Shown: positions 44,716-57,413, numbered from the stretch's first letter. The stretch: DNA of 58,411 nucleotides from Candidatus Solincola daggyaiensis (GCA_015711825.1 JACVJD010000004.1:1-58411), one strand, 5' to 3'. Program-made: numbers and translations. Notes: generated by a model not told the origin, from the letters alone.

Positions 44716-47700
44716 ATGGAGAAAAAGGGCGGCGCCATCACCAGACATGGAAGCGCCTGGAAATGGATCGCGGCTTACCTGGCCGCGGCGGCGGTGCTGG
44801 CCGCGGCCGGCACGCTCTTCGCCCTCTACCTGCGTTCCGACGTCAGGCGGCGCGCCCAGGAGGAGATCTCCGCCGTGGCGGACCTCAAGGCGGAGCAGAT
44901 CGGCAACTGGGTGGAAGAGCGCCTGGCGGACGCCGGGACCGCCGCGGAGAGCCCCTTCTTCTCGCGGGAGGCGGCAAGATATCTGGCCGCTCCCGATGAC
45001 CTTGAGCTCAAGGTAAACCTTCTCTCCTGGATGCAGTCGCGGATGGAGAATTACGGCTACGTCTCCTCCTTCCTCCTCGACGCGGAGGGGAACGCGGCGC
45101 TCTCCCTCAACCCCCGCGGCGACCCGGTGGGGGAATACGCGCGGGGGCTCGCCCTGGAGTGCATGGCCAAGGGGGCGCCCTCCATTTCGGACCTCCACCG
45201 CGGAGAGGGAAACGAGGAGATCCATATCGACTTAGTGGTGCCGGTAGCGGCAACCCCGAACGCCGCCCCGGCGGGAGCGCTGCTCCTGCGCATCGACCAC
45301 CACGACTTCCTCTACCCCTTCATCCAGTCCTGGCCCACCCCCAGCGAGACGGCGGAGACCCTGCTGGTGCGGCGAGAGGGGGACGAGGTGGTCTTCCTCA
45401 ACGAGCTGCGCCACCGCAGCGGGACGGCCCTCCAGCTCCGCCTTCCCCTGGGCGAGGAGGACCTTCCGGCGGCGCGGGCGGCGCTTGGAGAGGAGGGCGC
45501 CATGGAGGGGGTGGACTACCGCGGCGTGGAGGTGCTCGCCGCCACTCGCTCCGTGCCCGGAACCGGCTGGCGCCTGGTGGCCAAGGTGGACGCGTCCGAG
45601 GTCTATTCCCCCACCACCCTGCGCGTATCGCTGGCCGTGGCCCTCACCCTCATCGTGGTGCTCGCCTTAGGCTTCGCCTTCGCCCTCGCCTGGACGCGCC
45701 GCCAGGCCGAGCTCTACCGGCGGCAGTGCCGGCTGGAGTCCGAGCGCGCCGCCCTGGCCCGCCACTACGAGTACCTCACCCGCTACGCCAACGACATCAT
45801 CATCCTCATGGACACGGACTGGAGGATCGCGGAGGTCAACCAGCGCGCCGTCCAGGCCTACGGGTATTCGCGCGAGGAGCTCATCGGCATGCCCGCCGCT
45901 AACCTGCGCTCGCCGGCGGAACGCCCGCGCTTCGCGCAGACCGTGCGCGACCTCGACCTCTCCAACGGCACCATCATCGAGACCGAGCACATGCGCAAGG
46001 ACGGCACCGTCTTCCCGGTGGAGATCAGCGCGCGCATAATCGAGGTGGACGGCGACCGTTTCTACCAGGGCATCATACGCGACATCAGCGAGCGCAGGCG
46101 CATGGAGGCGGAGCTGCGCGCCTCGGAGGAGAAGTACCGCCTGCTCTTCCGGCACGCCCCCATAGGCGTTTTCCAATACGACCTCAACCTGGTGATCACC
46201 GACTGCAACGACCGCTTCGTGGAGATCCTGCGATCCTCGCGGGAGCGCCTGGTGGGGCTGGACATGAACAGGCTGCGCGACCGCAGCGTGCTGCCGGCCA
46301 TCCGCGCCGCCCTGGAGGGGATCGAGGGGCTCTACGAGGGACCGTACGCCGCCACCACCAGCGAGGCCCATGTATTCGTTTCCTTGCGCACCACCCCGCT
46401 GAGGGACGCCGGCGGCGCCATCATCGGGGGCGTGGGCATCGTGGAGGACATCACCGAGCGCAAACGTATCAGGGAGGAGCTGGCGGAAAGGGAGCTTTTC
46501 CTGCGGCGGCTCACCGACAACATGCTGGACCTCATCAGCCAGATCGACGTGGACGGGAACTTCGTTTACCTAAGCCCCTCCAACCAGAGGGTGCTGGGCT
46601 ACCGAGAGGGCGAGCTGCTGGGCAGCAACGTCATGGAGCTGGTGCACCCCGAGGACCTCCCGGCGGTGGCGGAGACATACGCCAGGTCCAACCGCGAGCT
46701 GGCGCCGGGCAAGGTCGAGTTCCGGGCCAAAAAGGCCGACGGCACCTATATCTGGGTGGAATCGGTGGGGAACCCCCTTTTCGACGAGGAGGGCAAGCTC
46801 ATAGGGGCCATCTTCGTCACCCGCGACATCGGCGAGCGCAAGCGGGCGGAGCGGCGCCTGGAGAGGCTGACCCACTGCTTCCTGGGGCTGGGGTCCGACC
46901 CCCTGGAGAACATCATCCGTATCGTGGACACCGGAAAAGAGATCCTCGAGGCCGGCGGCGCGCACTACACCCGCCTTGCCCAGGGAAGATTCCAGATCTA
47001 CCACACCGCCAGGGACAGCGCGGGGTTCGAGCCGCTGGACGAGGAGCATCACCTTGTCTGCCGCGAGATGATCGCCGCGAACCGCGAGCAGCCCGTCTCC
47101 GTCGAGGACCTCGGCGCCCTGGATTACGTGGGCTTCCTCCCCGAGGTGGCAAAAGAGAGGTTCGCCTCCTACTTCGCCTATCCCGTCAGGGCCCACGGCA
47201 GGACGGTGGGAGTCCTGGGCTTGCTGCGCCGCGAGAAAGGCGAGGCCGGCGGCGAGGAGCGCGATCTGGCGGGGACGCTGGCCCGGGCCATCGCGGTGGA
47301 GGAGGAGCGCCTGGCCCACGAGGAGGAGCTGCGGGACTTCGTGGACATCGCCTCCCACGAGCTGCGCCACCCCATGACCGTCATCAAGGGTTACGCCTCC
47401 ACCCTGCTTTCCCACCACCACCGCATGGACGAGGAGACGAGGCGCGAGGTGCTCATGGATATAGAACGAGGCGTGGACCGGCTGGAAAGGCTGGTTTACC
47501 AGCTACTGGACACCGCGCGCATCGACCGTGATAAGCTGGCGCTCAACCTGGTGGAGAGCGACCTGGTGGCGACCCTGGAGGAAGTGGTGCGGGAGACACG
47601 CAAGCGCGATCCCTTGGTGCCGATAGCGTTTCGCGTTCACAAGCGTCCCAAGACCGTAAGGGCCGACCCCGAACGCATCGCGCAGGTACTGGTGATCCTG

Positions 47701-47997
47701 CTGGAAAACGCGGTCAACTATTCCCCCGGGCTGACCGGGGTCGAGGTGGAGGTGGCCGGCAAGGACGAGGGCGGCATGACGGTGTCGGTCCTCGACCGCG
47801 GACTGGGAGTGCCGGAGGAGGAGCGGCAGAGGATATTCGAGCGCTTCTACCAGGTCGGTGACGCCACCCACCACTCCGCGGAGGGAATCGGGCTCGGCCT
47901 GTACATCGCAAGGGAGATCGTCAAGGGTCACGGCGGCCACATCTGGCACGAGCCCCGCGAGGGCGGCGGCTCCATCTTCCGCTTCACCCTTCCCTGA
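44716..47997 (+). CDS. Cache-PAS-PAS-PAS-GAF sensor histidine kinase
   Basis: Two TMs around a Cache-like domain (DYRGVEVLAA..GWRLVAKVD), three PAS, ASHELRHPMT, GIGLGL. Confidence 0.93.
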   Translation: MEKKGGAITRHGSAWKWIAAYLAAAAVLAAAGTLFALYLRSDVRRRAQEEISAVADLKAEQIGNWVEERLADAGTAAESPFFSREAARYLAAPDDLELKVNLLSWMQSRMENYGYVSSFLLDAEGNAALSLNPRGDPVGEYARGLALECMAKGAPSISDLHRGEGNEEIHIDLVVPVAATPNAAPAGALLLRIDHHDFLYPFIQSWPTPSETAETLLVRREGDEVVFLNELRHRSGTALQLRLPLGEEDLPAARAALGEEGAMEGVDYRGVEVLAATRSVPGTGWRLVAKVDASEVYSPTTLRVSLAVALTLIVVLALGFAFALAWTRRQAELYRRQCRLESERAALARHYEYLTRYANDIIILMDTDWRIAEVNQRAVQAYGYSREELIGMPAANLRSPAERPRFAQTVRDLDLSNGTIIETEHMRKDGTVFPVEISARIIEVDGDRFYQGIIRDISERRRMEAELRASEEKYRLLFRHAPIGVFQYDLNLVITDCNDRFVEILRSSRERLVGLDMNRLRDRSVLPAIRAALEGIEGLYEGPYAATTSEAHVFVSLRTTPLRDAGGAIIGGVGIVEDITERKRIREELAERELFLRRLTDNMLDLISQIDVDGNFVYLSPSNQRVLGYREGELLGSNVMELVHPEDLPAVAETYARSNRELAPGKVEFRAKKADGTYIWVESVGNPLFDEEGKLIGAIFVTRDIGERKRAERRLERLTHCFLGLGSDPLENIIRIVDTGKEILEAGGAHYTRLAQGRFQIYHTARDSAGFEPLDEEHHLVCREMIAANREQPVSVEDLGALDYVGFLPEVAKERFASYFAYPVRAHGRTVGVLGLLRREKGEAGGEERDLAGTLARAIAVEEERLAHEEELRDFVDIASHELRHPMTVIKGYASTLLSHHHRMDEETRREVLMDIERGVDRLERLVYQLLDTARIDRDKLALNLVESDLVATLEEVVRETRKRDPLVPIAFRVHKRPKTVRADPERIAQVLVILLENAVNYSPGLTGVEVEVAGKDEGGMTVSVLDRGLGVPEEERQRIFERFYQVGDATHHSAEGIGLGLYIAREIVKGHGGHIWHEPREGGGSIFRFTLP

Positions 47998-48114
47998 GGT
48001 GAGGGGTTTCCCCCGCCTCGCACCCATGGCGCGACCAAGATCTCCACGACCTCTTTTCGATACATCCATGTCGCGCAAACCCGCATGCCGAACCGTTCCG
48101 CCGTCCTCCCATAC

Positions 48115-49758
48115 TCAAGAGAGCACGGCGCCGCGGGCGGCTGAGCCCACCATCCTTACGTACCGGCGCATGAACCCCGCCGGCACCTCCCGCTCCGCGG
48201 GCCGGTGTTGCGCCAGGCGTGAGGAGATCTCCTCCTCGCTGAGCCTGACTTCCAGCCGGCGACCGGGAATGTCGATGCTTATCTCGTCCCCGTCGCGCAG
48301 CGCCGCGATGGGCCCTCCGGCGGCGGCCTCGGGCGAAACGTGCCCGATGCACGGACCCGAGGTGGCGCCCGAGAACCTGCCGTCGGTGATGAGGGCCACG
48401 CGGGTGAAACCGTGCAGCTCCAGCCCCATGGTCACCGCCAGCGTCTCCGGCATGCCCGGCCCACCCTTCGGTCCCTCGTTGCGGATGACCACCACCTCCC
48501 CCTCCCTCAGCGTCCCCTCGCGCAGGGCTGAGAGGCAGTCGGCCTCCGCCTCGAAGACCCGCGCCGGTCCCGAAAAGCGCAGCATCTCCGGGAGCACCGC
48601 CGACTGCTTGACCACCGCCCCCTCCGGCGCCAGGTTGCCGAAGAGCGCCACCGTGCCCCCTTGGGGGAAGAACGGGTTATCCCGCGTGCGTATGACCTCG
48701 CCGTCGCGGACCTCGGCCGCCTCCACCACCTCCGCGACGCTCTGCCCCATGACGTTCAACGCCTCCAGATGCAGGTCGTCGGCGAGCGTTTTCATCACCG
48801 CCGGCACGCCCCCGGCCCGGTAGAGGTCCTGGATACCGTGGGGTCCGTTGGGGGCGATGGAACACAGGGTGGGTATGCGCGGGTTGAAATCGTTGAAGCG
48901 CGAGAGGGGCAGTTCAAACCCCAGCTCGTGCGCGATGGCCGGGAGATGCAGGGCGGAGTTGGTGGAACCCCCTATGGCCAGGTCCACCATGAGGGCGTTC
49001 TCCACCGCCTTCTCGGTCAGCACCGCGCGCGCGCCGAGGCCCTCCTCGACCATCTCCACCACCCGCATGCCCGCGCGGCGGGCGAAGAGGAGCTTCTCGG
49101 AGAAGTAGGCGGGAACGTTGGCGGAGCCGGGTATGGTCAGTCCCATGGCCTCCGCCAGGCACTGGAAGGTGTTGGCGGTGCCCATGAGCTCGCATGATCC
49201 ACAGGTGGCGCAGGTGGCCGTGGCCAGCTTGTCCAGCAAGTCGGGGTAGTCCTTGTGGAAGATGCTGCCCGTGCTGCGCGGCGAGAACCTTATCTGAAAG
49301 GCCCCGGGGCCCCCGGTGAGCATGATCGCCGGCAGGTCAAGCCGCGCGGCCGCCATGATCATGCCCGGGATGATCTTGTCGCAGGAGGCGACCATGACCA
49401 TACCGTCGAAGAGCATGCTGCGGGCGTAGGTCTCCACCGTGTCCGCGATGAGCTCCCGCTGGGGAAGCACGAACCTCATGCCCTCGTTCCCCTCCGTGAA
49501 GCCGTCGCAGGGAGCCGGCACGTTGAACTCGAAGGGTATGCCTCCGGCGGCGTGCACTCCCTCCTTGACGCGCTCCGCCAGCGCGCGCAGATGCATGTGA
49601 CCGGGGTTCATATCCGTATGGGAGTTCGCGACGGCGATGATGGGTTTTCGCTTCAACTCCTCTATGTCCATGCCCAAACCCTGCATGATGGCGAGACGCG
49701 CGATGCTCACCGGGAAATCCCTCTCGTCGAAGATGGGGCCGCTCTTGGGTTTGGTCAT
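48115..49758 (-). CDS. ilvD: Dihydroxy-acid dehydratase (IlvD/Edd family)
   Basis: NPGHMHL, PCDG, SCDKIIPG, GSCELMGTANT, GGSTN, GPKGGPGMPE, TDGRFSGA, GHVSPEA. Substrate may not be the BCAA intermediate. Confidence 0.88.
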   Translation of the reverse strand: MTKPKSGPIFDERDFPVSIARLAIMQGLGMDIEELKRKPIIAVANSHTDMNPGHMHLRALAERVKEGVHAAGGIPFEFNVPAPCDGFTEGNEGMRFVLPQRELIADTVETYARSMLFDGMVMVASCDKIIPGMIMAAARLDLPAIMLTGGPGAFQIRFSPRSTGSIFHKDYPDLLDKLATATCATCGSCELMGTANTFQCLAEAMGLTIPGSANVPAYFSEKLLFARRAGMRVVEMVEEGLGARAVLTEKAVENALMVDLAIGGSTNSALHLPAIAHELGFELPLSRFNDFNPRIPTLCSIAPNGPHGIQDLYRAGGVPAVMKTLADDLHLEALNVMGQSVAEVVEAAEVRDGEVIRTRDNPFFPQGGTVALFGNLAPEGAVVKQSAVLPEMLRFSGPARVFEAEADCLSALREGTLREGEVVVIRNEGPKGGPGMPETLAVTMGLELHGFTRVALITDGRFSGATSGPCIGHVSPEAAAGGPIAALRDGDEISIDIPGRRLEVRLSEEEISSRLAQHRPAEREVPAGFMRRYVRMVGSAARGAVLS

Positions 49759-49905
49759 GGTATTACCCCCCTCGGTGTCCGGCGTCGCGACGGTTTATCG
49801 CGACGCCACCTACTTACCTTGTTTTGGCATATTCTTCGCCCTGCCAGTCGTCTCCCAGCTTGCCGTCCGGAGACGACCAAGTCCGACTAGACAATGATAG
49901 CAAAG

Positions 49906-50245
49906 GTATGCGCGCCGGGCCCCGTCCTCGCCATCGCTCGCCTTCGGCTCGCTTCCGTCTCGGCCACGGCGCCCTGCACCGTGCCGCCGCCCTCCGAAAG
50001 CCTCGCGCGAGCGTATGCGTGCCAGGCCCCGTCCTCGCCATCGCTCGCCTTCGGCTCGCTTCCGTCTCGGCCACGGCGCCCTGCACCGTGCCGCCGCCCT
50101 CCGAAAGCCTCGCGCGAGCGTATGCGTGCCAGGCCCCGTCCTCGCCATCGCTCGCCTTCGGCTCGCTTCCGTCTCGGCCACGGCGCTGGACACTGCCACG
50201 CCTCCCTACGGTCGGCGTGGTCGCTTTCGCGATGCAATCTTCCGT
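49906..50245. repeat. Intergenic array A: three copies of a structured core, 107-bp period
   Basis: Cores GTATGCG(T/C)GCC(A/G)GGCCCCGTCCTCGCC...CCGTCTCGGCCACGGCG start at 49906, 50013, 50120. Confidence 0.95.
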
Positions 50246-50256
50246 GACGTTGTATG

Positions 50257-51753
50257 TTATTCGTGGCGGTTTATGAGGTCGGAGGCGATGATGCCGGAGG
50301 CGACCACCGACGGAATACCTCCTCCCGGATGGGTGGAGGCTCCCGCGAGGTACAGGCCTCTTATGCTCTTCGACTTCGCCGCCGGCCTGAACACCGCCGA
50401 GGACGATATATCCATGTCCAGTCCCAGGATAGCGCCTTCGGGGGTGAGCAGCCGACGCTCGTAATCCCTCGGGGTCAACACGTCCATCACCTCCACGTGA
50501 TCCGCCAGCCCGGGGATAGCCCGTTCGCTCAACATCTCTATCTGTTTTTCGCCGTATGCCTTCTTGTCGCGGTCCCAATCCAGCTCGCTGAGATGATAAG
50601 GTCCGGACAGCACGATGTTGAGCACATGGCGCCCTTGCGGGGCCATGCTTTCGTCCGAGAAGGTGGGAAAACAAACCAGGGCATAGGGTTCCCGGGGCAG
50701 CAGGCCCCTCGGCATGTCCTCGAACCAGTAGCGGTTGGTCTCCTCCATGGATACGGTGACGATATTGTGGTGGGCCTCCAGAGGCGGCCGGTAGTCCAGC
50801 CCCACGTTGATCATGGGAGCCGAGGCGGAGAGCCGATAGCTTTTGATCCCCTGCCTGGCGAGCCGGGGAAGATGCCCTTCTCCGATCATCTGCAGGTAAA
50901 GCGTTTTGGCGTTGATGTCGGAGACCACCACCGGGGCGCCGATCTCGGTGCCGTCGGCCAGGGCCACGCCCTGCACCCTGCGGCCGCTCACCATCACCTT
51001 CTCCACCCGTCGCCTCAGCGCGATCTCCATACCGAACCTCTCTCCACACCGTCGCAGAGCTTCCGGCAAGGCGATCATGCCGCCCCTGGGAAAGAAGACG
51101 CCCTCGTGCTCGGCGTAAGAGAGAAAGGCGAAGATCCCCGGGGCCAGGGCGGGGGGCTGACCGCAGAACTTCCCCGGGTAAGAGAGGGAATCCAGCACCC
51201 GCTCGTCCTTGAAATACCCCCGCATCACCTCCTCGAAGGAGCGGTTGAAGAGGGGGAGGAACTTGAGCAGGCGGGGGTTCTTCAGCATCACCTTTGCCAT
51301 GTCCGCCATGCCGTTCATGGGGCTGAGGAAGAACCCCTCCACGGCAGTGCGCATGAAATCGCCCACGTAGCGGGCGTACTCCAGCCATGCCTTGCCGTCC
51401 TGGGGTGAGATGCGGGAGATGATCTCGGCTTTCGCCTCTATGGAGGAAGGGTAGGTGATGCGCGAGCCGTCCTGAAGGATGATGCCGTAAACGGGGTCGC
51501 AGGGCTCCAGCTCGACCTCCTCGCCAAAGCCGGTGCCCAGCCTCTCGAAGGCGATCTCGAAGGGGCGCAATATCTCGAGGATGGTGGCGCCCACGTCGAA
51601 ACGGTAGCCCTTTCGTTCGTAGGTCGAACAGCAACCCCCTATGCTTCCTCCCTGCTCCAGCACCAGCGTCCTGCGACCTTGTTTCGCCAACAGCGCCCCC
51701 GCAGTCAACCCGCCGAGACCCGCCCCGATGACGATAACGTCGTAATCCGGCAT
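50257..51753 (-). CDS. Phytoene dehydrogenase-like (COG1233/CrtI family) FAD oxidoreductase
   Basis: YDVIVIGAGLGG, GGCCSTYERKGYRFDVGA, LYLAGASTHPGGGIP. Confidence 0.9.
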   Translation of the reverse strand: MPDYDVIVIGAGLGGLTAGALLAKQGRRTLVLEQGGSIGGCCSTYERKGYRFDVGATILEILRPFEIAFERLGTGFGEEVELEPCDPVYGIILQDGSRITYPSSIEAKAEIISRISPQDGKAWLEYARYVGDFMRTAVEGFFLSPMNGMADMAKVMLKNPRLLKFLPLFNRSFEEVMRGYFKDERVLDSLSYPGKFCGQPPALAPGIFAFLSYAEHEGVFFPRGGMIALPEALRRCGERFGMEIALRRRVEKVMVSGRRVQGVALADGTEIGAPVVVSDINAKTLYLQMIGEGHLPRLARQGIKSYRLSASAPMINVGLDYRPPLEAHHNIVTVSMEETNRYWFEDMPRGLLPREPYALVCFPTFSDESMAPQGRHVLNIVLSGPYHLSELDWDRDKKAYGEKQIEMLSERAIPGLADHVEVMDVLTPRDYERRLLTPEGAILGLDMDISSSAVFRPAAKSKSIRGLYLAGASTHPGGGIPSVVASGIIASDLINRHE

Positions 51754-52060
51754 CTCCGCACCTCCCCCTGCTTCTTTGTCCCTCCCCCTGCGATAAGACC
51801 GGGGCCTTCCCATGTGCGCTCTTCAGCGGCTCGAAGGATCGCGCCTCGCCTTCGCATTCCCCTTATCGGCTCCCGAGATACCCGTTACCTCAGGAAAAGA
51901 CGCACCCCTGCAGGCAAAGTCCTTTCGTCCAAGGGGACCGGACAGCGGGCCACGCACAGCCCACGGCGCGGCCCGCCGGCGATCCCTGGTCGCCCCTCCC
52001 GGCTAAAAGAAGCGATCCGGGTCCACGTCCCAATGTCGATTATCCCCATCGGCGATCACG

Positions 52061-52378
52061 GTATGCGTGCCAGGCCCCGTCCTCGCCTCTGCTCGTTTCA
52101 CTCGCTTCCGTCTCGGCCACGCCTCTTGCGCATCGTCCGCGCCCCTGGTATGCGGGGGTATGCGTGCCAGGCCCCGTCCTCGCCTCTGCTCGTTTCACTC
52201 GCTTCCGTCTCGGCCACGCCTCTTGCGCATCGTCCGCGCCCCTGGTATGCGGGGGTATGCGTGCCAGGCCCCGTCCTCGCCTCTGCTCGTTTCACTCGCT
52301 TCCGTCTCGGCCACGGCGCTGGACACTGCCACGCCTCCCTGCGGTCGGCGTGGTCGCTTTCGCGATGCAATCTTCCGT
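52061..52378. repeat. Intergenic array B: three copies of the same core, 97-bp period
   Basis: Cores start at 52061, 52158, 52255. Terminal tail nearly identical to that of array A. Confidence 0.95.
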
Positions 52379-52385
52379 TGGGTGA

Positions 52386-53351
52386 TCAATAGCTGCTGGG
52401 CTCTTGGGAGATCCCCAGCATCTCCCGCGCCTGCTGCGGGGTGGCCACCTCGCGGTTGAGCTCATGCGCGATGCGCACCATCCTGGCCACCAGCTCGGCG
52501 TTGTTCTTGAGTTTCCTTCCCCTTGAATAATACAGGTTGTCCTCCATGCCCACGCGCACATGCCCGCCCAGCAACACCGACATCACGGTCATGGGGAGCT
52601 GATACGGGCCCACCCCGATGGCGAAGAAGATGGACTGGGGAGGCAGCTCGTCGATGAGCGAGAGCAGGTTCTTGGGCGTGGGGAAGGATGAGGTCTGGAA
52701 GCCCATGACGAACTGGATGTCGTAGGGCGGGTCGATGAGCCCCTGCATGATGAGGTCCTGCACCACCCAGTACATGCCCGGATGGTAGAGCTCCATCTCC
52801 GGCTTGATGCCCTTCTCCTTCATGGTCTTGGCGTAGAGGCTGATGTCGGCGTAGGAATTGGGGATGCAGCGGTCATAGACCATGGCTGGGCGCGGGCTGG
52901 GCAGGGGCTCCGCCCTCTCGCGCAGGGGCACCTTGAGCACGAAGGGCCCCAGGTTGAGGGAGCACAGCTCCGGGTTGGCGTAGATGCTCGCCATGCGCTG
53001 CTCGGTGGTCAGCTCCGGTCCACCCCCGGTGGTGTTGTTGATGATGATGTCCGGGCACTTGTCGCGGATCATGGCGTTGATGCGCAGGTAATCCTCGGGG
53101 TTGCTGGAGGTCATCCACCACACCTCGGGGTTGCGCGCGTGCACGTGCACGATGCTCGCGCCCGCCTTGTAGGCCTCGTAGGTCTGTTCCGCCTGCTCCT
53201 CCGGCGTCTCGGGAAGGTTCTCGTTGGCCTCCTTCCCCTCCACGCCCCCCGTGATGGCCACGGAGATGATGAGCGGCGGGAGCCCCTTCCTAGTCCGGCT
53301 CATCCACTCGTACGGGTTTCGGTAGTCCCACATGTAGTCATCCGGGTTCAT
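52386..53351 (-). CDS. Beta-keto acid cleavage enzyme (BKACE/Kce, DUF849) family
   Basis: IISVAITG, AGASIVHVHAR, NNTTGG, KPEMELY, GGHVRVGMEDN, ATPQQAREML. Confidence 0.93.
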   Translation of the reverse strand: MNPDDYMWDYRNPYEWMSRTRKGLPPLIISVAITGGVEGKEANENLPETPEEQAEQTYEAYKAGASIVHVHARNPEVWWMTSSNPEDYLRINAMIRDKCPDIIINNTTGGGPELTTEQRMASIYANPELCSLNLGPFVLKVPLRERAEPLPSPRPAMVYDRCIPNSYADISLYAKTMKEKGIKPEMELYHPGMYWVVQDLIMQGLIDPPYDIQFVMGFQTSSFPTPKNLLSLIDELPPQSIFFAIGVGPYQLPMTVMSVLLGGHVRVGMEDNLYYSRGRKLKNNAELVARMVRIAHELNREVATPQQAREMLGISQEPSSY

Positions 53352-53400
53352 CGCCTGCCTCCTTTTCCTCGCTCAATCCTTCCCGTTAACGCACCCCCAA

Positions 53401-53768
53401 GCGTGCCGGGCCCCGTCCTCGCCTCTGCTCGTTTCACTCACTCCGTCTCGGCCACGGCGACCGGCATACGCCGCCCCGCGGGATGGCTACCTCGCGCCTT
53501 CGTATGCGTGCCAGGCCCCGTCCTCGCCTCTGCTCGTTTCACTCACTCCGTCTCGGCCACGGCGACTGGCACCGTGCCGCCGCCCTCCGGGCGTCGTCAT
53601 CGCTTTCGCGATACGCGGCTGTCCCGGCCTTTTCCCTCGCGCCTTCGTATGCGTGCCAGGCCCCGTCCTCGCCTCTGCTCGTTTCACTCACTCCGTCTCG
53701 GCCACGGCGACTGGCACCGTGCCGCCGCCCTCCGGGCGTCGTCATCGCTTTCGCGATACATTCTTCCG
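53401..53768. repeat. Intergenic array C: three copies of the same core, unequal spacing
   Basis: Cores start at 53401, 53502, 53647. Confidence 0.95.
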
Positions 53769-53773
53769 AAACG

Positions 53774-56419
53774 TCAGATTTTTATGCGGAGGTTGGTGAG
53801 GGGGAAGCTCATGCAGGGGTGGATGAAGCCCGCCTTCTCGTCCACCCAGCGCTTGAGCACCCGCTCGGGCACGAAGACCTCGCCCTCCAGCAGCCTGGTG
53901 CGGCAGACGGTGCACTCCCCGGAGCGGCATATCGCCTCCACCACCAAACCCGCCCGCTCCAGGGAGTTCATCAGGGGCTCCCCGGAGCGCGCCTGGAAGG
54001 TCTTGCCGGTGCGCTCCTCCACCACCTCGAAGACCGCGTCCGGGTCGGACCCCGGCCAGCCCGGCTCGGCGGTGATGTCCTGGGGCGGGCCGTAGGCCTC
54101 GCGGCGTATCCTCCGCTTCGGCACCCCCAGGGAGAGCAAGGCCTTTTCGCACAGCAGGTACATCTGGGCGGGCCCGCAGAGGTAGAAGGTCTTTCCCTCC
54201 ACCTCCCCCACCAGGCGCGAGATCATCTCCGCGTCCAGCAGCCCGCACAGCCCCGACCAACCCTGGGGGGGCTCGGAGATGACGTAGTCCACCTTGAGCC
54301 CGGGCACCTTGCCCTCCAGCCCCTTCATCTCCTCGCCGAAGATGATGTCGCCGGGATCCCTGCTGCCGTAGATGAGGTGTATCTTCAATTCCGTGCCCTT
54401 TTCGGCCGCCTCGCGGATAATGGAGGCGAAGGGGGTTATCCCCGACCCGCCCGCCAGAAAGACCAGGTCGTCGGTGTCCATGGCGGGCTCATGGAAGAAG
54501 CTTCCAAAGGGGCTGGTGGACTCGAAGCGGTCGCCCGGCTTCACCTCGTCCAGGAGGTAATTGGACACGAACCCGCCCGCGGTGCGGCGCACGGTGATGT
54601 CCCAGTAATCGGTTCCGGGCGGAGAGGAGATGGAATACGGGCGCGAGGTGAGCACCCCTCCCACCCGGCAGAAGAGGTTGACGTACTGGCCGGCGCGGAA
54701 CCAGGGCAGCTCCCCTTGCGCCGCCGTCATGCGCAGGGTCTTGGCGGTGGGGGTCTCCTCGACGACCTCCGCCACCTCCAGCTGCACCCGGTCTGGATGC
54801 AGGCCGGCCAGGGCCCGCTCCACGCGCGTGACGGGGCTGTCGGGGAGCTCCCTGCCCTCCACCTGCTTCTCCATCTCCTTCTGCAGTTTCTCCAAGGCGC
54901 CGGGCTTCGGCCCCCCCGCCTCCATGTCCTCCAGCACCTTGCGGGAGGTGAGGAAGCCGGAATACATGGAGGGCTCGTAGCCACCCCCGATGTTCACCCA
55001 CGCCCCCGAGAAGTAGAGGCCCTCTATGGGGCCCTGGGCGGGCATGCGCACCAGGCCGGTGCCGGCGAAGGTCTCGTCGAAGCCGATGATGCTCCCCCCT
55101 ACGTTGCGGGAATACCTGATGTTGGTGAGCGGGGTGGCGACCTCGATGACCTCGATGTGGTCACGTATGCCGTGAGCGACGTTCTCCGCCAGGTCCAGCA
55201 CCCTCTCCGCCGCCCTCTCCTTGGCCTCCGCGTACTGGGACGGCGGCAGTTTCATCCAGGGCTCGGCGAAGGCGATGTAGGTGCACACCAGGGAGGAGGT
55301 CCCCGGAGGCGAGAACTCCGGGTCCACGGTGTTGTACGCGGTCACCGCGATGTCCGAGGGCAACAGGGTCTCCCCTTTCTTGACCCTCATCCAGTTGCCG
55401 TCCACGTCGTAGCCGTCGCTGTAGAAGGTCTCGTGGTGGCCGAGGCCGAGGTCGCGGTAGTCACAGTCCACTCCCAGGTAAAGGTTGACGGTGGAGGCGC
55501 CGCCCGTCCAGGCGCCCAGGCGCTTGAGGTACCACTCCGGGACCTTCTCCCGCCCGATGAGCTCCAGGCAGGCCACGTAGGGGTTGGCGTTGCTCACCAC
55601 CACGGGGCAGAGGACCTCCGTGCCGTCCTGGGCCACCACGCCCCTGACTTTCCCCTCCTCCACCAGGATGCGCGCGGCGCCGTTGCGCACCCATACCTCG
55701 CCGCCCATGTCCTCGATGGAATCCATGAAGGCCTGGGAGAGGGCCTGGCTCTTGCCCTTCACGTGCCAGGGACCGAAGCGCAGGTAGCTCACCGTGCCCA
55801 GGGCGTAGGTGAGGAAGGAGAGCGCGGAAGGGTTGTTGCAGTAGTACCCGCAGAGGACGTTGAACACCGTGCAGGCGCGCTCGTCCTTGATGAACTGATC
55901 CATGACCTCCTTGAGGCTCTTGCCGAAATACTTGATGAGGTTGGGAAATTCCTCCTGGTGCTCCATGACCATCTTGGTGCCCACGCGGTTGGCGCGTAAG
56001 GCCTCCTCGGCGTACTTGAACATCAGCTCGGTGAAATCCCGGATCCCGTCCGCGTCCGCCGGGAAGTATTCCGCCAGGGCGGCGATGAAAGCGTCCTTGC
56101 CGATGGGCACCACCACGTCCACGTCCGGGAGCACGCAACGGTAGAACTCGGGGATGGGCAAAAACTCCACCCGCCTGGCCACGTCCACCTCGTTGAGCAG
56201 CCTCCACAGCGGGCCGGGGTTCTTCTCGTCCCCCAGCCCCGAGAGCTCGTGCAGGGAGATCTCGAACTCGAAGCGCCCGCGCACGAAGGAGGATGCGTAA
56301 CCTCCCGGCACGTAGTGGCGCTCCAGGACGAGGACCTTTTTCCCCGCCTTGGCCAGGAAGGCCGCCGAGGACAGGCCCCCCAGGCCGGCCCCGACCACAA
56401 CCGCGTCGTAATCCTTCAT
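53774..56419 (-). CDS. COG1233 oxidoreductase fused to an FNR-type reductase and a 2Fe-2S ferredoxin
   Basis: YDAVVVGAGLGG..PGGYASSFVRGRFEFE..GLYFSGAW; then RPYSISS, AGGSGITP, YLCGP; C-terminal CRSGECTVC...PC. Confidence 0.9.
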   Translation of the reverse strand: MKDYDAVVVGAGLGGLSSAAFLAKAGKKVLVLERHYVPGGYASSFVRGRFEFEISLHELSGLGDEKNPGPLWRLLNEVDVARRVEFLPIPEFYRCVLPDVDVVVPIGKDAFIAALAEYFPADADGIRDFTELMFKYAEEALRANRVGTKMVMEHQEEFPNLIKYFGKSLKEVMDQFIKDERACTVFNVLCGYYCNNPSALSFLTYALGTVSYLRFGPWHVKGKSQALSQAFMDSIEDMGGEVWVRNGAARILVEEGKVRGVVAQDGTEVLCPVVVSNANPYVACLELIGREKVPEWYLKRLGAWTGGASTVNLYLGVDCDYRDLGLGHHETFYSDGYDVDGNWMRVKKGETLLPSDIAVTAYNTVDPEFSPPGTSSLVCTYIAFAEPWMKLPPSQYAEAKERAAERVLDLAENVAHGIRDHIEVIEVATPLTNIRYSRNVGGSIIGFDETFAGTGLVRMPAQGPIEGLYFSGAWVNIGGGYEPSMYSGFLTSRKVLEDMEAGGPKPGALEKLQKEMEKQVEGRELPDSPVTRVERALAGLHPDRVQLEVAEVVEETPTAKTLRMTAAQGELPWFRAGQYVNLFCRVGGVLTSRPYSISSPPGTDYWDITVRRTAGGFVSNYLLDEVKPGDRFESTSPFGSFFHEPAMDTDDLVFLAGGSGITPFASIIREAAEKGTELKIHLIYGSRDPGDIIFGEEMKGLEGKVPGLKVDYVISEPPQGWSGLCGLLDAEMISRLVGEVEGKTFYLCGPAQMYLLCEKALLSLGVPKRRIRREAYGPPQDITAEPGWPGSDPDAVFEVVEERTGKTFQARSGEPLMNSLERAGLVVEAICRSGECTVCRTRLLEGEVFVPERVLKRWVDEKAGFIHPCMSFPLTNLRIKI

Positions 56420-56441
56420 CTGTGACCCCTCCCGTTCTCTC

Positions 56442-57413
56442 TCAGGCGGTACGCGAGCTTGCCAGCCGGCCCGCGATCTCCTCCGCCTGCGCGACCATGC
56501 CCTGGATCGCTTCCTTCACCGTCACTATGTCGTGCAGCAGCCCCACGCTCTGGCTGCATGCCAAAACCCCCAGGTCCACCTCGCCCCGCTCCAGCATGCC
56601 GCGGGTGTTGGATCCGGCCACGATGGCAAGTATTTCCTGGAAATCGGCGCCGGCCCTTTCGAGCTCCGCCGCCTTCTCGGCCGCCTGGTTCCTGACCACG
56701 CGGATGGTGTTGTGCACCGAGCCCAACAGGGGCACGGTGTCCTCTTCCCCCGCCGCCAGCAGGCTCTCCTTCACCGCCGCGCTCATGGGGCATTCATGCG
56801 TGAGCAGCAGCCGGGTGCCGATGAGCACCGCCTCCGCCCCCAGGCTGAAAGCCGCCAGCATCCCCCGCCCGTCCGCGATGCCCCCGGCGGCGATCACCGG
56901 TATGTCCAGGACGTCCACCGCCCGCGGCACCAGGGAGAGGGTGGCCACGGACCCGATATGGCCCCCGCCCTCGTACCCGAAGAGGGTCACCGCGTCCGCC
57001 CCCGCCTTCCGGGCGCTCAGGGCATGGCGCACGCTCACGCACTTGTGCATGAGCTTGAGGCCTCCCTCCTTGAGCACGGCCACCAGGTCCTCGGGCGGCC
57101 GGTTGCCGCTGGTCTCCACCGCCGTCACCCCGCCCTCCTCCAGGATCACCTCGGCGTAGAGGCGGTTGTCTATGGGGCGCAGGGCGGGGAAGAGGTTGAG
57201 GTTGACGGCGAAGGGCTTGTCCGTGAGCCCCTTTAACCTGCGCAGGGCGGCGCGGAACTCCTCCTGGGTGGGGAACATGGCCGAGGACATGATCCCCAGC
57301 GCCCCCGCCTCGCACACCGCGGCCGTGAACTCCGGCCCGGTTATCCACTGCATGCAGCCCCCGATCACCGGGTACTCGATCCCCAAAAGCTCCGTTATCC
57401 TCGTCTTGAACAT
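56442..57413 (-). CDS. Nitronate monooxygenase / FabK-like flavin oxidoreductase
   Basis: KTRITELLGIEYPVI, TDKPFAVN, GYEGGGH, PVIAAGGIADGRG, GTR. Confidence 0.9.
   Translation of the reverse strand: MFKTRITELLGIEYPVIGGCMQWITGPEFTAAVCEAGALGIMSSAMFPTQEEFRAALRRLKGLTDKPFAVNLNLFPALRPIDNRLYAEVILEEGGVTAVETSGNRPPEDLVAVLKEGGLKLMHKCVSVRHALSARKAGADAVTLFGYEGGGHIGSVATLSLVPRAVDVLDIPVIAAGGIADGRGMLAAFSLGAEAVLIGTRLLLTHECPMSAAVKESLLAAGEEDTVPLLGSVHNTIRVVRNQAAEKAAELERAGADFQEILAIVAGSNTRGMLERGEVDLGVLACSQSVGLLHDIVTVKEAIQGMVAQAEEIAGRLASSRTA

Follow-up and report, generated by a model that had tools for sequence, protein, structure and literature searches.

The window analysed here is a 58,411-nt stretch of Candidatus Solincola daggyaiensis (GCA_015711825.1, JACVJD010000004.1:1-58411), contig C4 of a draft genome bin of 3.0 Mb, 190 contigs and 63.7% G+C. 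It contains three arrays of a repeat in three consecutive gaps between genes. The repeat is part of an element of about 100–125 nt, whose four helices (P0, P1, P2 and P3) are maintained by compensatory changes and are predicted to form a four-way junction on the strand of the genes. The element represents a new family of structured interspersed repeats. We give about even weight to the reading that it is co-transcribed and acts as RNA structure at the 3' ends of messages.

Three arrays of the repeat in consecutive intergenic gaps

The exact 15-mer GGCCCCGTCCTCGCC marks nine repeat cores, all matched on the + strand (positions 49918, 50025, 50132, 52073, 52170, 52267, 53409, 53514 and 53659). 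With up to two mismatches it gives 10 matches, compared with a shuffle mean of 1.48, and 10 was reached in 0 of 100 shuffles. Tandem Repeats Finder delimits array A (49906-50186, period 107, 2.6 copies, 98% matches), array B (52060-52315, period 97, 2.6 copies, 100% matches) and array C (53490-53759, period 145, 1.9 copies, 100% matches), and a separate repeat search concurs on the three arrays. Units are 98–100% identical inside an array and 67–80% identical across arrays. These results bear out a first-pass annotation of the window, which had described nine cores in three consecutive gaps, homogeneous within arrays and divergent between them. As it also stated, the cores share the orientation of the flanking genes, the nine cores and four genes all being on the minus strand when the cores are read in the direction of the fold. 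Tandem copy numbers are uncertain, as the assembly is a draft bin and arrays of other bins contain runs of N.

The units in the window were delimited by the bit scores of a covariance model, R1, and the full unit was recognised from copies at other loci of the source genome. Four of the nine cores belong to complete elements, and the other five consist of the P3 arm with an array-specific linker. Each array opens, in transcript order, with a longer unit, in which the leader, P1 and P2 precede the core. The features of the locus, in transcript order, are the following.

53774..56419, minus strand: upstream gene of array C, an 881-aa fused flavoprotein with Amino_oxidase, FAD_binding_6/NAD_binding_1 and Fer2 domains (open reading frame, Pfam)
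53647..53769, minus strand: array C unit 1, complete, with leader, P0, P1, P2 and P3 (R1 123.9 bits, model positions 1-125); P1 begins 14 nt past the TGA of the upstream gene
53502..53622, minus strand: array C unit 2, complete, P1-P3 the same as in unit 1 (R1 104.8 bits; 100% identity over 125 nt)
53404..53466, minus strand: array C unit 3, P3 arm only, with the GCCGG/CCGGC closing-stem variant (R1 55.6 bits, model positions 54-118)
52386..53351, minus strand: gene between arrays C and B, a beta-keto acid cleavage enzyme (BKACE; PF05853, E 6.7e-88)
52255..52378, minus strand: array B unit 1, complete (R1 137.6 bits); its RNA minimum-free-energy (MFE) structure equals the four-helix model
52168-52225 and 52071-52128, minus strand: array B units 2 and 3, P3 arm only, with an array-specific linker of 97-nt period (R1 42.9 bits each, model positions 57-115)
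50257..51813, minus strand: gene between arrays B and A, a 518-aa flavin amine-oxidase-family oxidoreductase (PF01593, PF13450)
50120..50245, minus strand: array A unit 1, complete, the reference unit (R1 140.6 bits)
50234-50236 with 50123-50125, minus strand: P0 of array A unit 1
50221-50232, minus strand: P1 of array A unit 1 (UCGC-GAAA-GCGA)
50196-50220, minus strand: P2 of array A unit 1
50126-50193, minus strand: P3 of array A unit 1, with the closing stem 50186-50193 / 50126-50132 and a G.A-rich tip within
50013-50107 and 49906-50000, minus strand: array A units 2 and 3, partial, a remnant of the 3' half of P2 plus P3, period 107 (R1 60.3 and 52.1 bits)
48115..49758, minus strand: downstream gene of array A, dihydroxy-acid / 6-phosphogluconate dehydratase family (PF00920, PF24877)

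The minus-strand strings listed in the first-pass annotation are present, namely GCGAGCCGAAGGCGAGC in array A, GCGAGTGAAACGAGC in arrays B and C, the tail GCCGACCGTAGGGAGGC in A with its GCA version in B, and the tail CGCCCGGAGGGCG in C. The change of the closing stem between GCCAG/CTGGC and GCCGG/CCGGC is confirmed in the 53409 unit and is compensatory. The claim that all loops are GNA triloops does not hold, as each array has, at its 5' end, a UCGC-GAAA-GCGA hairpin with a tetraloop, which had been overlooked.

A closed four-way junction with two almost invariant helices

RNAalifold, applied to 11 full units, places P0 as a short outer helix closing a four-way junction, which contains almost no unpaired junction bases. 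P1 is the UCGC-GAAA-GCGA hairpin in the source genome and an almost invariant AUCGC-GNAA-GCGAU across the family, its loop being GNAA in all 125 distinct copies compared. P2 is a variable hairpin, with a stem sequence that changes from locus to locus. P3, which constitutes the core, is a long hairpin composed of an almost invariant base (GUGCCAG/CUGGCAC), a small bulge and a variable distal helix. The consensus of the 125 distinct copies reads ncganaG nn UGc A UCGCG-nAA-GCGA [P2] Cg GUGnC cagc GCC [distal P3] GGCC UGGCAC GngUac, and contains few conserved unpaired bases. The flank profiles of 94 arrays are ...ACG NNN CGANAG NN UGC on the 5' side and GYRUAC GU NN CG on the 3' side. A leader motif (CGACAG) and a trailer motif (GYRUAC-GU) are conserved around the units. 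In addition, a leader-like motif follows many units and arrays as a direct repeat.

The distal part of P3 is a plain hairpin in most relatives, typically UGGACA-UUUCCGAA-UGUCCA, and the commonest type of tip, U-UCCG-A, is found in 53 of the 125 copies. The GCGAGC / tandem G.A stretch corresponds to an elaborated tip, a purine-rich GCGAGC repeat module grown on P3 in the window's genus and shorter in some other copies. GNA triloops closed by a C-G pair, the only triloops counted, are located at the tip of P2 in 64 and at the tip of P3 in 29 of the 125 copies. The first-pass annotation had drawn attention to both GNA triloops and tandem G.A pairs. The C-G-closed triloops do recur throughout the family, whereas the G.A stretch is a genus-level elaboration of the tip and lies outside the conserved part.

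In some bins the element is located inside a longer repeat unit, with a linker module (CTGGCG)AACCCCATCCGTCTGAGCA on both sides of the four-helix part (L098, 1-460; L105, minus strand, ~2300-2700; and the flanks of L057, L066, L076, L087 and L104).

Compensatory changes support a fold on the gene strand

Covariation was evaluated with a hand-written P0-P3 structure of 32 pairs over the 125 distinct copies, which come from relatives. The alignment was fitted to R1, which favours the R1 pairs; two distal-P3 pairs and the outer P0 pairs are absent from R1. Standard pairs occupy 87.7% of 3862 cells, compared with 23.5–49.1% when the partners are slid by 1–3 columns, and 18 of the 32 pairs are altered on both sides. 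The number of compensatory cells is 269, against 95.6 +/- 8.2 in shuffles, and the observed value was reached in 0 of 500 shuffles. Moreover, G.U combinations outnumber A.C combinations overall (287 vs 80) and in distal P3 (29 vs 4). The three inner pairs of P0 have a nearly fixed 5' side (U, G and C), and their 3' side alternates between two pairing bases (UG 76 / UA 42; GU 57 / GC 51; CG 97 / UG 17), with wobble pairs in 150 of 375 cells. The compensatory changes and the G.U excess together point to selection on a folded single strand.

Folding with RNA parameters agrees with this result. On the minus strand, four units, including one from a relative, give z-scores of -2.79, -1.89, -1.01 and -3.62, compared with -0.30, -0.12, -1.61 and -1.72 on the plus strand, and the minus-strand RNA fold is better by 4–10 kcal/mol. 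The RNA MFE structure equals the four-helix model for three of the four units (z -2.8, -1.9 and -3.6). In particular, array A unit 1 (MFE -54.5 kcal/mol, z -2.79) yields exactly the P0-P3 helices listed above. As the minus strand both folds better and matches the model, the folded strand is taken to be the gene strand. The larger alignment therefore sustains the proposal of a selected, strand-specific structure.

The element is found in one family of uncultured Actinomycetota

A profile of the nine cores, searched against the contigs of the source genome, gives 25 matches on 11 contigs. Four contig ends of this genome fall within copies of the element (C22 start, C126 start, C113 end and C189 start). 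The C113 end and the C189 start are identical in sequence, and C126 and C22 resemble halves of one copy with five GCGAGC words, indicating that the repeat is a cause of assembly breaks.

Among 41 related genomes, the source included, R1 finds the element in 15, all belonging to one family: both g1 genomes besides the source, the one g3 genome, nine of 10 g7 genomes and both g6 genomes, the latter with one copy each. Outside g6 the number of R1 matches per genome ranges from 9 to 58, and none was found in 17 genomes of other families. A second covariance model built from a wider alignment, R2, likewise detects it in 15 of the 51 genomes covered for the class and in 0 of the 27 outside the family, with 13–65 matches per genome outside g6 and more than 450 in all. 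Among the 24 genomes of the family, those of genera g2, g4 and g5 and the genome G008 are without it. The two single g6 copies are at unrelated loci, and no 'master gene' was found.

A pattern scan with one genome per species returned at least 115 stretches. R1 was run on 100 of them (L049-L148), with 15 left unsearched. The stretches searched contain 129 units, grouped in 106 arrays, and every one is from a record whose title gives uncultured Actinomycetota or Actinobacteria. Pattern matches in other taxa (L068, L085, L089, L107, L111 and L112) have no R1 match and were taken as chance. The pattern-scan records and the sets of 41 and 51 genomes may partly overlap, so that these samples are not independent.

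Arrays tend to follow the stop codons of co-oriented genes

In the source genome, 13 of 13 arrays are intergenic and located behind a co-oriented gene, two pairs of identical-sequence contig ends being counted as one array each. In the 10 arrays measured there, P1 begins 12–41 nt past the stop codon. Genes were called by GC content at the third codon position in the source genome and by codon-usage likelihood in the relatives, as the former caller mislabelled shadow frames in lower-GC relatives; its counts there are not used. In the relatives, which are non-independent samples for orientation counts, a co-oriented gene lies upstream of 64 of 106 arrays, with its stop codon at most 60 nt away in 60 of the 64. 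For 77 arrays both neighbours were called within 600 nt: 34 are sense and nine antisense between co-directional genes, 21 are between convergent genes and 13 between divergent genes. The sense bias in the relatives is thus strong, but not absolute.

The next gene on the same strand starts within 11–60 nt of many copies, making full termination at the element unlikely. Array pairs within 8 kb of each other are on opposite strands in three of 13 cases, so the replication strand alone does not fix the orientation. The genes preceding the element encode flavoproteins, BKACE, ArgJ, an amidohydrolase, a thiolase, an acyl-CoA dehydrogenase, a nitroreductase and the ribosomal proteins L1 and L7/L12. 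Copies inside strings of housekeeping genes, after rplA and between rplL and rpoB, must be transcribed, and from this position we infer that the element would be present in RNA. The 186 proteins flanking the element in relatives form 129 clusters, of which the larger ones are orthologues of housekeeping enzymes; no recurrent transposase-like neighbour is found among the 186.

Orthologous sites are retained across genera, with gain, loss and decay

The element occupies orthologous sites across genera, namely after rplL, after thiolase genes and after flavoprotein genes. Thiolase precedes the element at five loci and L7/L12 at four, and these orthologous flanking clusters indicate that the same sites carry the element in several species. 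In the gap between rplL and rpoB, it is present at six of 22 loci searched (g1 and g7), one of which is cut at a contig end, and there are two units in the source genome. In four complete rplL-rpoB gaps inspected, the element starts ~25–30 nt past the rplL stop codon. A TTGACA, 17 nt, ATAATA promoter-like motif with a leader is located upstream of rpoB and downstream of the element in 17 of 17 stretches, which suggests that in this family rpoB is served by a promoter of its own and preceded by a conserved 5' leader. In three genomes of the sister genus g5, from which the element is missing, the same stretch contains a G+C-rich hairpin with a T run behind it.

Copy numbers at a given site differ between the source genome and its sister species. 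After the 881-aa gene, there are three units in the source genome, two in G002 and decayed remnants in G001 (3/2/remnant). After BKACE, there are three, none in G002 and a remnant in G001 (3/0/remnant). After rplL, there are two, a remnant in G002 and at least two in G001 (2/remnant/at least 2). Empty sites, which the first-pass annotation had suggested looking for in relatives, are not available in readable form: the one gap after BKACE that lacks the element in a sister species has flanks that no longer align, which leaves insertion borders and target duplication unreadable from this comparison, and the rplL-rpoB gap of that species holds a decayed remnant and is not an empty site.

When copies are compared by P2 and distal P3, 53 of the 129 have their closest match at a different locus of the same genome, compared with 15.1 expected at random, and the remaining 76 have it in another genome. 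Together with the conserved sites, these counts indicate that members of the family have been passed on at fixed sites and have also spread, or been homogenised, within genomes. With leader-like direct repeats in place, slippage or unequal exchange would more easily add or remove tandem units.

Several other repeats and gene arrangements were seen at these sites. The leader that follows the rpoB promoter-like motif is conserved as GTGTTTTGCGTAT ... GGAAAAGGAGTGAGG (L186, L187-L203). Genus g7 carries a different repeat, long, inverted and resembling a MITE (miniature inverted-repeat transposable element), with the ends GGGGTCAGGTCTTGTTTTTTGC ... GCAAAAAACAAGACCTGACCCC (L180, 8216-8422; L182, 1582-1951; L195 and L196, upstream of rpoB); it fills the gap after the 881-aa gene, the counterpart of the array C gap. 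Where a genome has one or no copy of the element (G007, G008), other tandem repeats fill the rplL-rpoB gap. These comprise a complex repeat around CGGCGGCCGGGCCGCCGGGTAACGGTCTCGCTCGC in the gap of ~1 kb in L201 (G007) and ~45–50-nt tandem repeats around GGAAGAACATGTACCACCCGCG upstream of rpoB in L196 (G008). Relatives also have two to four tandem paralogues of a 499-aa amine-oxidase-family flavoprotein beside the 882-aa gene (L180, G015:C13; L181, G004:C38; L178, G002:C7), and behind several of these the element or remnants of it are found. In G015 and G012 the flavoprotein cluster lacks the BKACE gene.

A possible RNA structure at the 3' ends of messages

The placement and the fold suggest the following mechanism. 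The element would be co-transcribed with the gene it follows, and its compact RNA fold would act in cis at the end of the cistron as a barrier to 3'-to-5' decay, possibly also as a weak, factor-dependent terminator or a processing site. In this way it could determine where the upstream message ends and how stable it is, with neighbouring cistrons uncoupled from one another. The tandem units may be products of local duplication between the leader-like direct repeats around each unit. We consider the chances of a new REP/BOX/bcr1-like repeat acting in this way to be about even.

Several observations weigh against this proposal. The near-invariance of P1 and of the P3 base points to a specific binding partner, and none was found. 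P2 has no G.U excess (29 G.U vs 37 A.C). The gene upstream is on the opposite strand in 33 of the 106 arrays of relatives, and nine antisense and 13 divergent placements are counted there; the codon-usage caller behind these counts is home-made, was trained on the source genome and was checked on five window genes only. The lack of a T run after the element shows that it is not a canonical intrinsic terminator. One g7 genome, at 98% completeness, has no copy in an otherwise element-rich genus, and orthologous copies have decayed in a sister species; single copies are therefore dispensable, and a selfish element would fit this no less well than a useful one. Unusual stability in DNA as well is known for C-GNA-G triloops and for the GCGAAAGC hairpin. 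Finally, transcription, the 3' ends and the effect on stability are inferred.

A second explanation takes the repeat to be purely selfish: the fold would serve only to let an enzyme working on RNA or DNA copy or homogenise the element, whose location would reflect target choice and host tolerance, with no benefit to the expression of genes. We consider this unlikely. The variation of copy number among sister species at the same sites, the genome without copies, the excess of nearest copies within the same genome and the direct repeats around units and arrays are all consistent with it, and the almost invariant P1 and P3 base would resemble recognition sites. However, copies persist at orthologous sites across genera with compensatory changes, and they show a sense bias. 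In addition, no candidate enzyme was found, and neither inverted terminal repeats nor a regular target duplication was seen. A search of the source genome for half-elements on either side of a gene, which might represent an autonomous parent, gave no credible case, the regex patterns being too loose for a 64% G+C genome.

The invariance of P1 and the P3 base also exceeds what stability would need, and may be read as the mark of a new class of functional RNA that is cut from operon transcripts. Such an RNA could be punctuation for a processing enzyme (a tRNA-like cloverleaf), a self-cleaving ribozyme or a protein-bound small RNA. The closed junction with almost no unpaired bases, the conserved leader and trailer, the head-to-tail arrays and the hundreds of copies with strong covariation and no Rfam match would suit this idea. 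If it were true, it would amount to a bacterial 'punctuation' system in which transcripts are cut at each unit and arrays release several stable RNAs of ~100 nt. We regard it as improbable, as the element has few conserved unpaired bases of the kind known in small ribozymes, the window contains no tRNA-like gene according to ARAGORN, copies are lost or decay with nothing taking their place, and partial units with P3 only persist in the arrays.

The preference of the first-pass annotation was a minus-strand fold of single-stranded DNA (ssDNA), mobilised or bound by a protein encoded elsewhere, for example an HUH enzyme or REP-associated tyrosine transposase (RAYT). Taken as a non-autonomous element moved by an HUH/Y1 enzyme of the RAYT or IS200/IS605 type, this we hold to be somewhat less probable again. 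The strand-specific fold would be expected, and the C-GNA-G triloops and the GCGAAAGC hairpin form very stable DNA mini-hairpins. The source genome has two PF01797 genes, and head-to-tail arrays with leader-like repeats at both ends could reflect insertion next to a fixed target. However, the distribution of PF01797 does not track that of the element. The gene occurs in 32 of the 41 related genomes, irrespective of whether they carry the element: it is absent from G018, which has 30 copies, and present in G003, G006, G008, G010, G014 and G016, which have none. In the source genome both PF01797 genes are on contigs without copies, with no P1 or 3' P3-base motif within ~1.5 kb. The proposed partnership with an HUH/RAYT enzyme is thus not sustained. 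Moreover, the end hairpins P1 and P3 base are unlike each other, inverted doublets are absent, and the opposite-strand array pairs noted above argue in the same direction.

Folding energies bear on the same question. With DNA parameters, which may under-rate GNA and G.A motifs, the window units are no better than shuffles (z -1.34, -1.12 and -1.56) and the four-helix fold is not the minimum, whereas a plainer unit of a relative folds well (z -4.26). The inner P0 pairs, with their reliance on wobbles, would largely be G.T wobbles in DNA, and the GNAA and UCCG loop types are features of an RNA kind. Taken with the orientation of the arrays and their placement behind stop codons, this indirect evidence leans towards RNA over ssDNA. 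The role in messenger RNA that the first-pass annotation had kept as a fallback fits better, and the ssDNA reading is left unsupported. The last alternative, a duplex DNA binding-site array with protein on one face of the helix, would account for the GCGAG words repeated at 10–11-nt spacing, three per window core and up to five in the copy split over two contig ends, but is most improbable, as the GCGAG module is limited to some lineages, most members have a plain hairpin there, and the compensatory changes and G.U excess already weaken it.

Relation to known repeats and structured RNAs

The element constitutes a new family, of the same kind as structured interspersed repeats such as repetitive extragenic palindromes (REP) with their bacterial interspersed mosaic elements (BIME), BOX and bcr1. 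The closed four-way junction, the invariant P1 and P3-base helices and the fixed sites across genera set it apart. The earlier proposal of a REP/MITE-like interspersed family is supported in this general sense, and no match to an already described element was found in Rfam or in the literature searched. In Rfam, positions 49000-54500 of the window give, at E up to 1, only a CRISPR-DR8 match inside the BKACE gene (52511-52547, + strand, 20.4 bits, E 0.88, gathering score 39), which is taken as chance. The canonical unit of a relative gives, at E up to 10, two chance long non-coding RNA matches outside the unit. No description of the element was found in the literature at title and abstract level, supplementary repeat lists not being covered.

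REP, BIME and REPIN sequences are likewise G+C-rich, structured, high-copy, extragenic and clustered, and occupy 3' untranslated regions and intercistronic spacers; REP sequences can affect mRNA stability, as summarised in PMC3184786. The present element shares the high copy number, the extragenic location and the G+C richness. REPs often lie close to stop codons. They are single hairpins of ~25–40 nt, often in inverted pairs, whereas the unit here has 100–125 nt and four helices, and so is not a short single REP/REPIN hairpin. REPIN doublets and BIME alternation are not seen either, since all arrays are direct and head-to-tail and no inverted-repeat pair joins two units; nor is the link of REPs and REPINs to RAYT genes, as PF01797 occurs regardless of the element. 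The absence of these features and of those of IS200/IS605 lowers the probability that the element is a REP, not that it works like one.

The multi-helix fold kept by compensatory changes is a trait shared with bcr1 and BOX. According to the account in PMC3184786, bcr1 of the Bacillus cereus group is an interspersed, transcribed repeat of ~155 bp in which compensatory changes keep a 'cruciform-like' multi-helix RNA fold. Its fold stability varies among strains, it has 5-bp direct repeats at its flanks, and its genomic distribution is non-conserved between strains (PMC3184786). In contrast, the element here is at several sites conserved across genera and has no regular target duplication. The likeness is one of description only, and the hosts belong to different phyla. 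BOX of Streptococcus pneumoniae is described as modular, with one module tandemly repeated in variable number and a predicted secondary structure (PMC3184786). Here P3 is the repeated module, but the modules, sequence and host differ. Mobility and effects on expression are reported for BOX.

Other classes resemble the element in part. In the actinobacteria, mycobacterial interspersed repetitive units (MIRU) are direct tandem repeats of tens of bases in operon spacers, gene-oriented and variable in copy number, and carry short reading frames overlapping the ends of neighbouring genes. Compared with these descriptions, selection in the present element is on base pairing, and none of its array periods (97, 107 and 145) is divisible by three. 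SPRITE-type terminator-like repeats and intrinsic terminators are likewise placed right behind genes, whereas the element has no T run: its 3' flank profile contains none, and a promoter and terminator scan gave no minus-strand terminator-like site in 47500-57000 and no minus-strand promoter-like site in the arrays. After rplL, the element occupies the stretch where the sister genus has a hairpin and a T run. Integron attC sites are similar in their single-strand fold and their location directly behind co-oriented genes in consecutive gaps. These sites have inverted core sites of the GTTRRRY type. The consensus ends of the element (CGACAG..., ...GYRUAC) show no inverted core sites, and copies are spread over at least 11 contigs behind housekeeping genes and do not form a single cassette array; an integrase was not searched for.

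Four further candidates were rejected. A CRISPR array does not fit, as the linkers between the cores are themselves repeated with 98–100% identity within an array. The conserved ends CGANAG..UGC and GYRUACGU of the 94 arrays are not mutual inverted copies and no fixed-length duplication flanks them, which is unlike a MITE. P1 and the P3 base are unrelated in sequence and do not form the similar subterminal hairpins of an IS200/IS605-derived element (PATE). ARAGORN finds no tRNA or tmRNA genes in the window.

Implications

The analysis adds a structured repeat family with good support, strong covariation and hundreds of copies, for which no library model exists, from uncultured Actinomycetota of a branch that has hardly been studied. 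The covariance models R1 and R2 could serve the annotation of these genomes and explain contig breaks. If the role in RNA proposed above is true, the family would be a second, independent case, in a Gram-positive high-G+C lineage, of repeats recruited to shape the 3' ends of messages, here at a site that in relatives is served by ordinary terminators. From the invariant helices a binding partner can be predicted, which would be worth finding. Moreover, the case shows that loop motifs stable in DNA, such as GNA triloops and G.A tandems, may turn out to be lineage-specific decoration of a larger fold when they are noted in a single window.

Other non-coding stretches near the arrays

The stretch from array B to the start of the flavoprotein gene (51814-52059) is ~250 nt of non-coding DNA, with no promoter-like, terminator-like or Rfam match. 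The 148 nt between array A and the dehydratase gene contain a perfect hairpin, GGCGTCGCGA-CGGTTTA-TCGCGACGCC (+ strand, 49779-49805), which is located just upstream of the ribosome-binding region of that gene.

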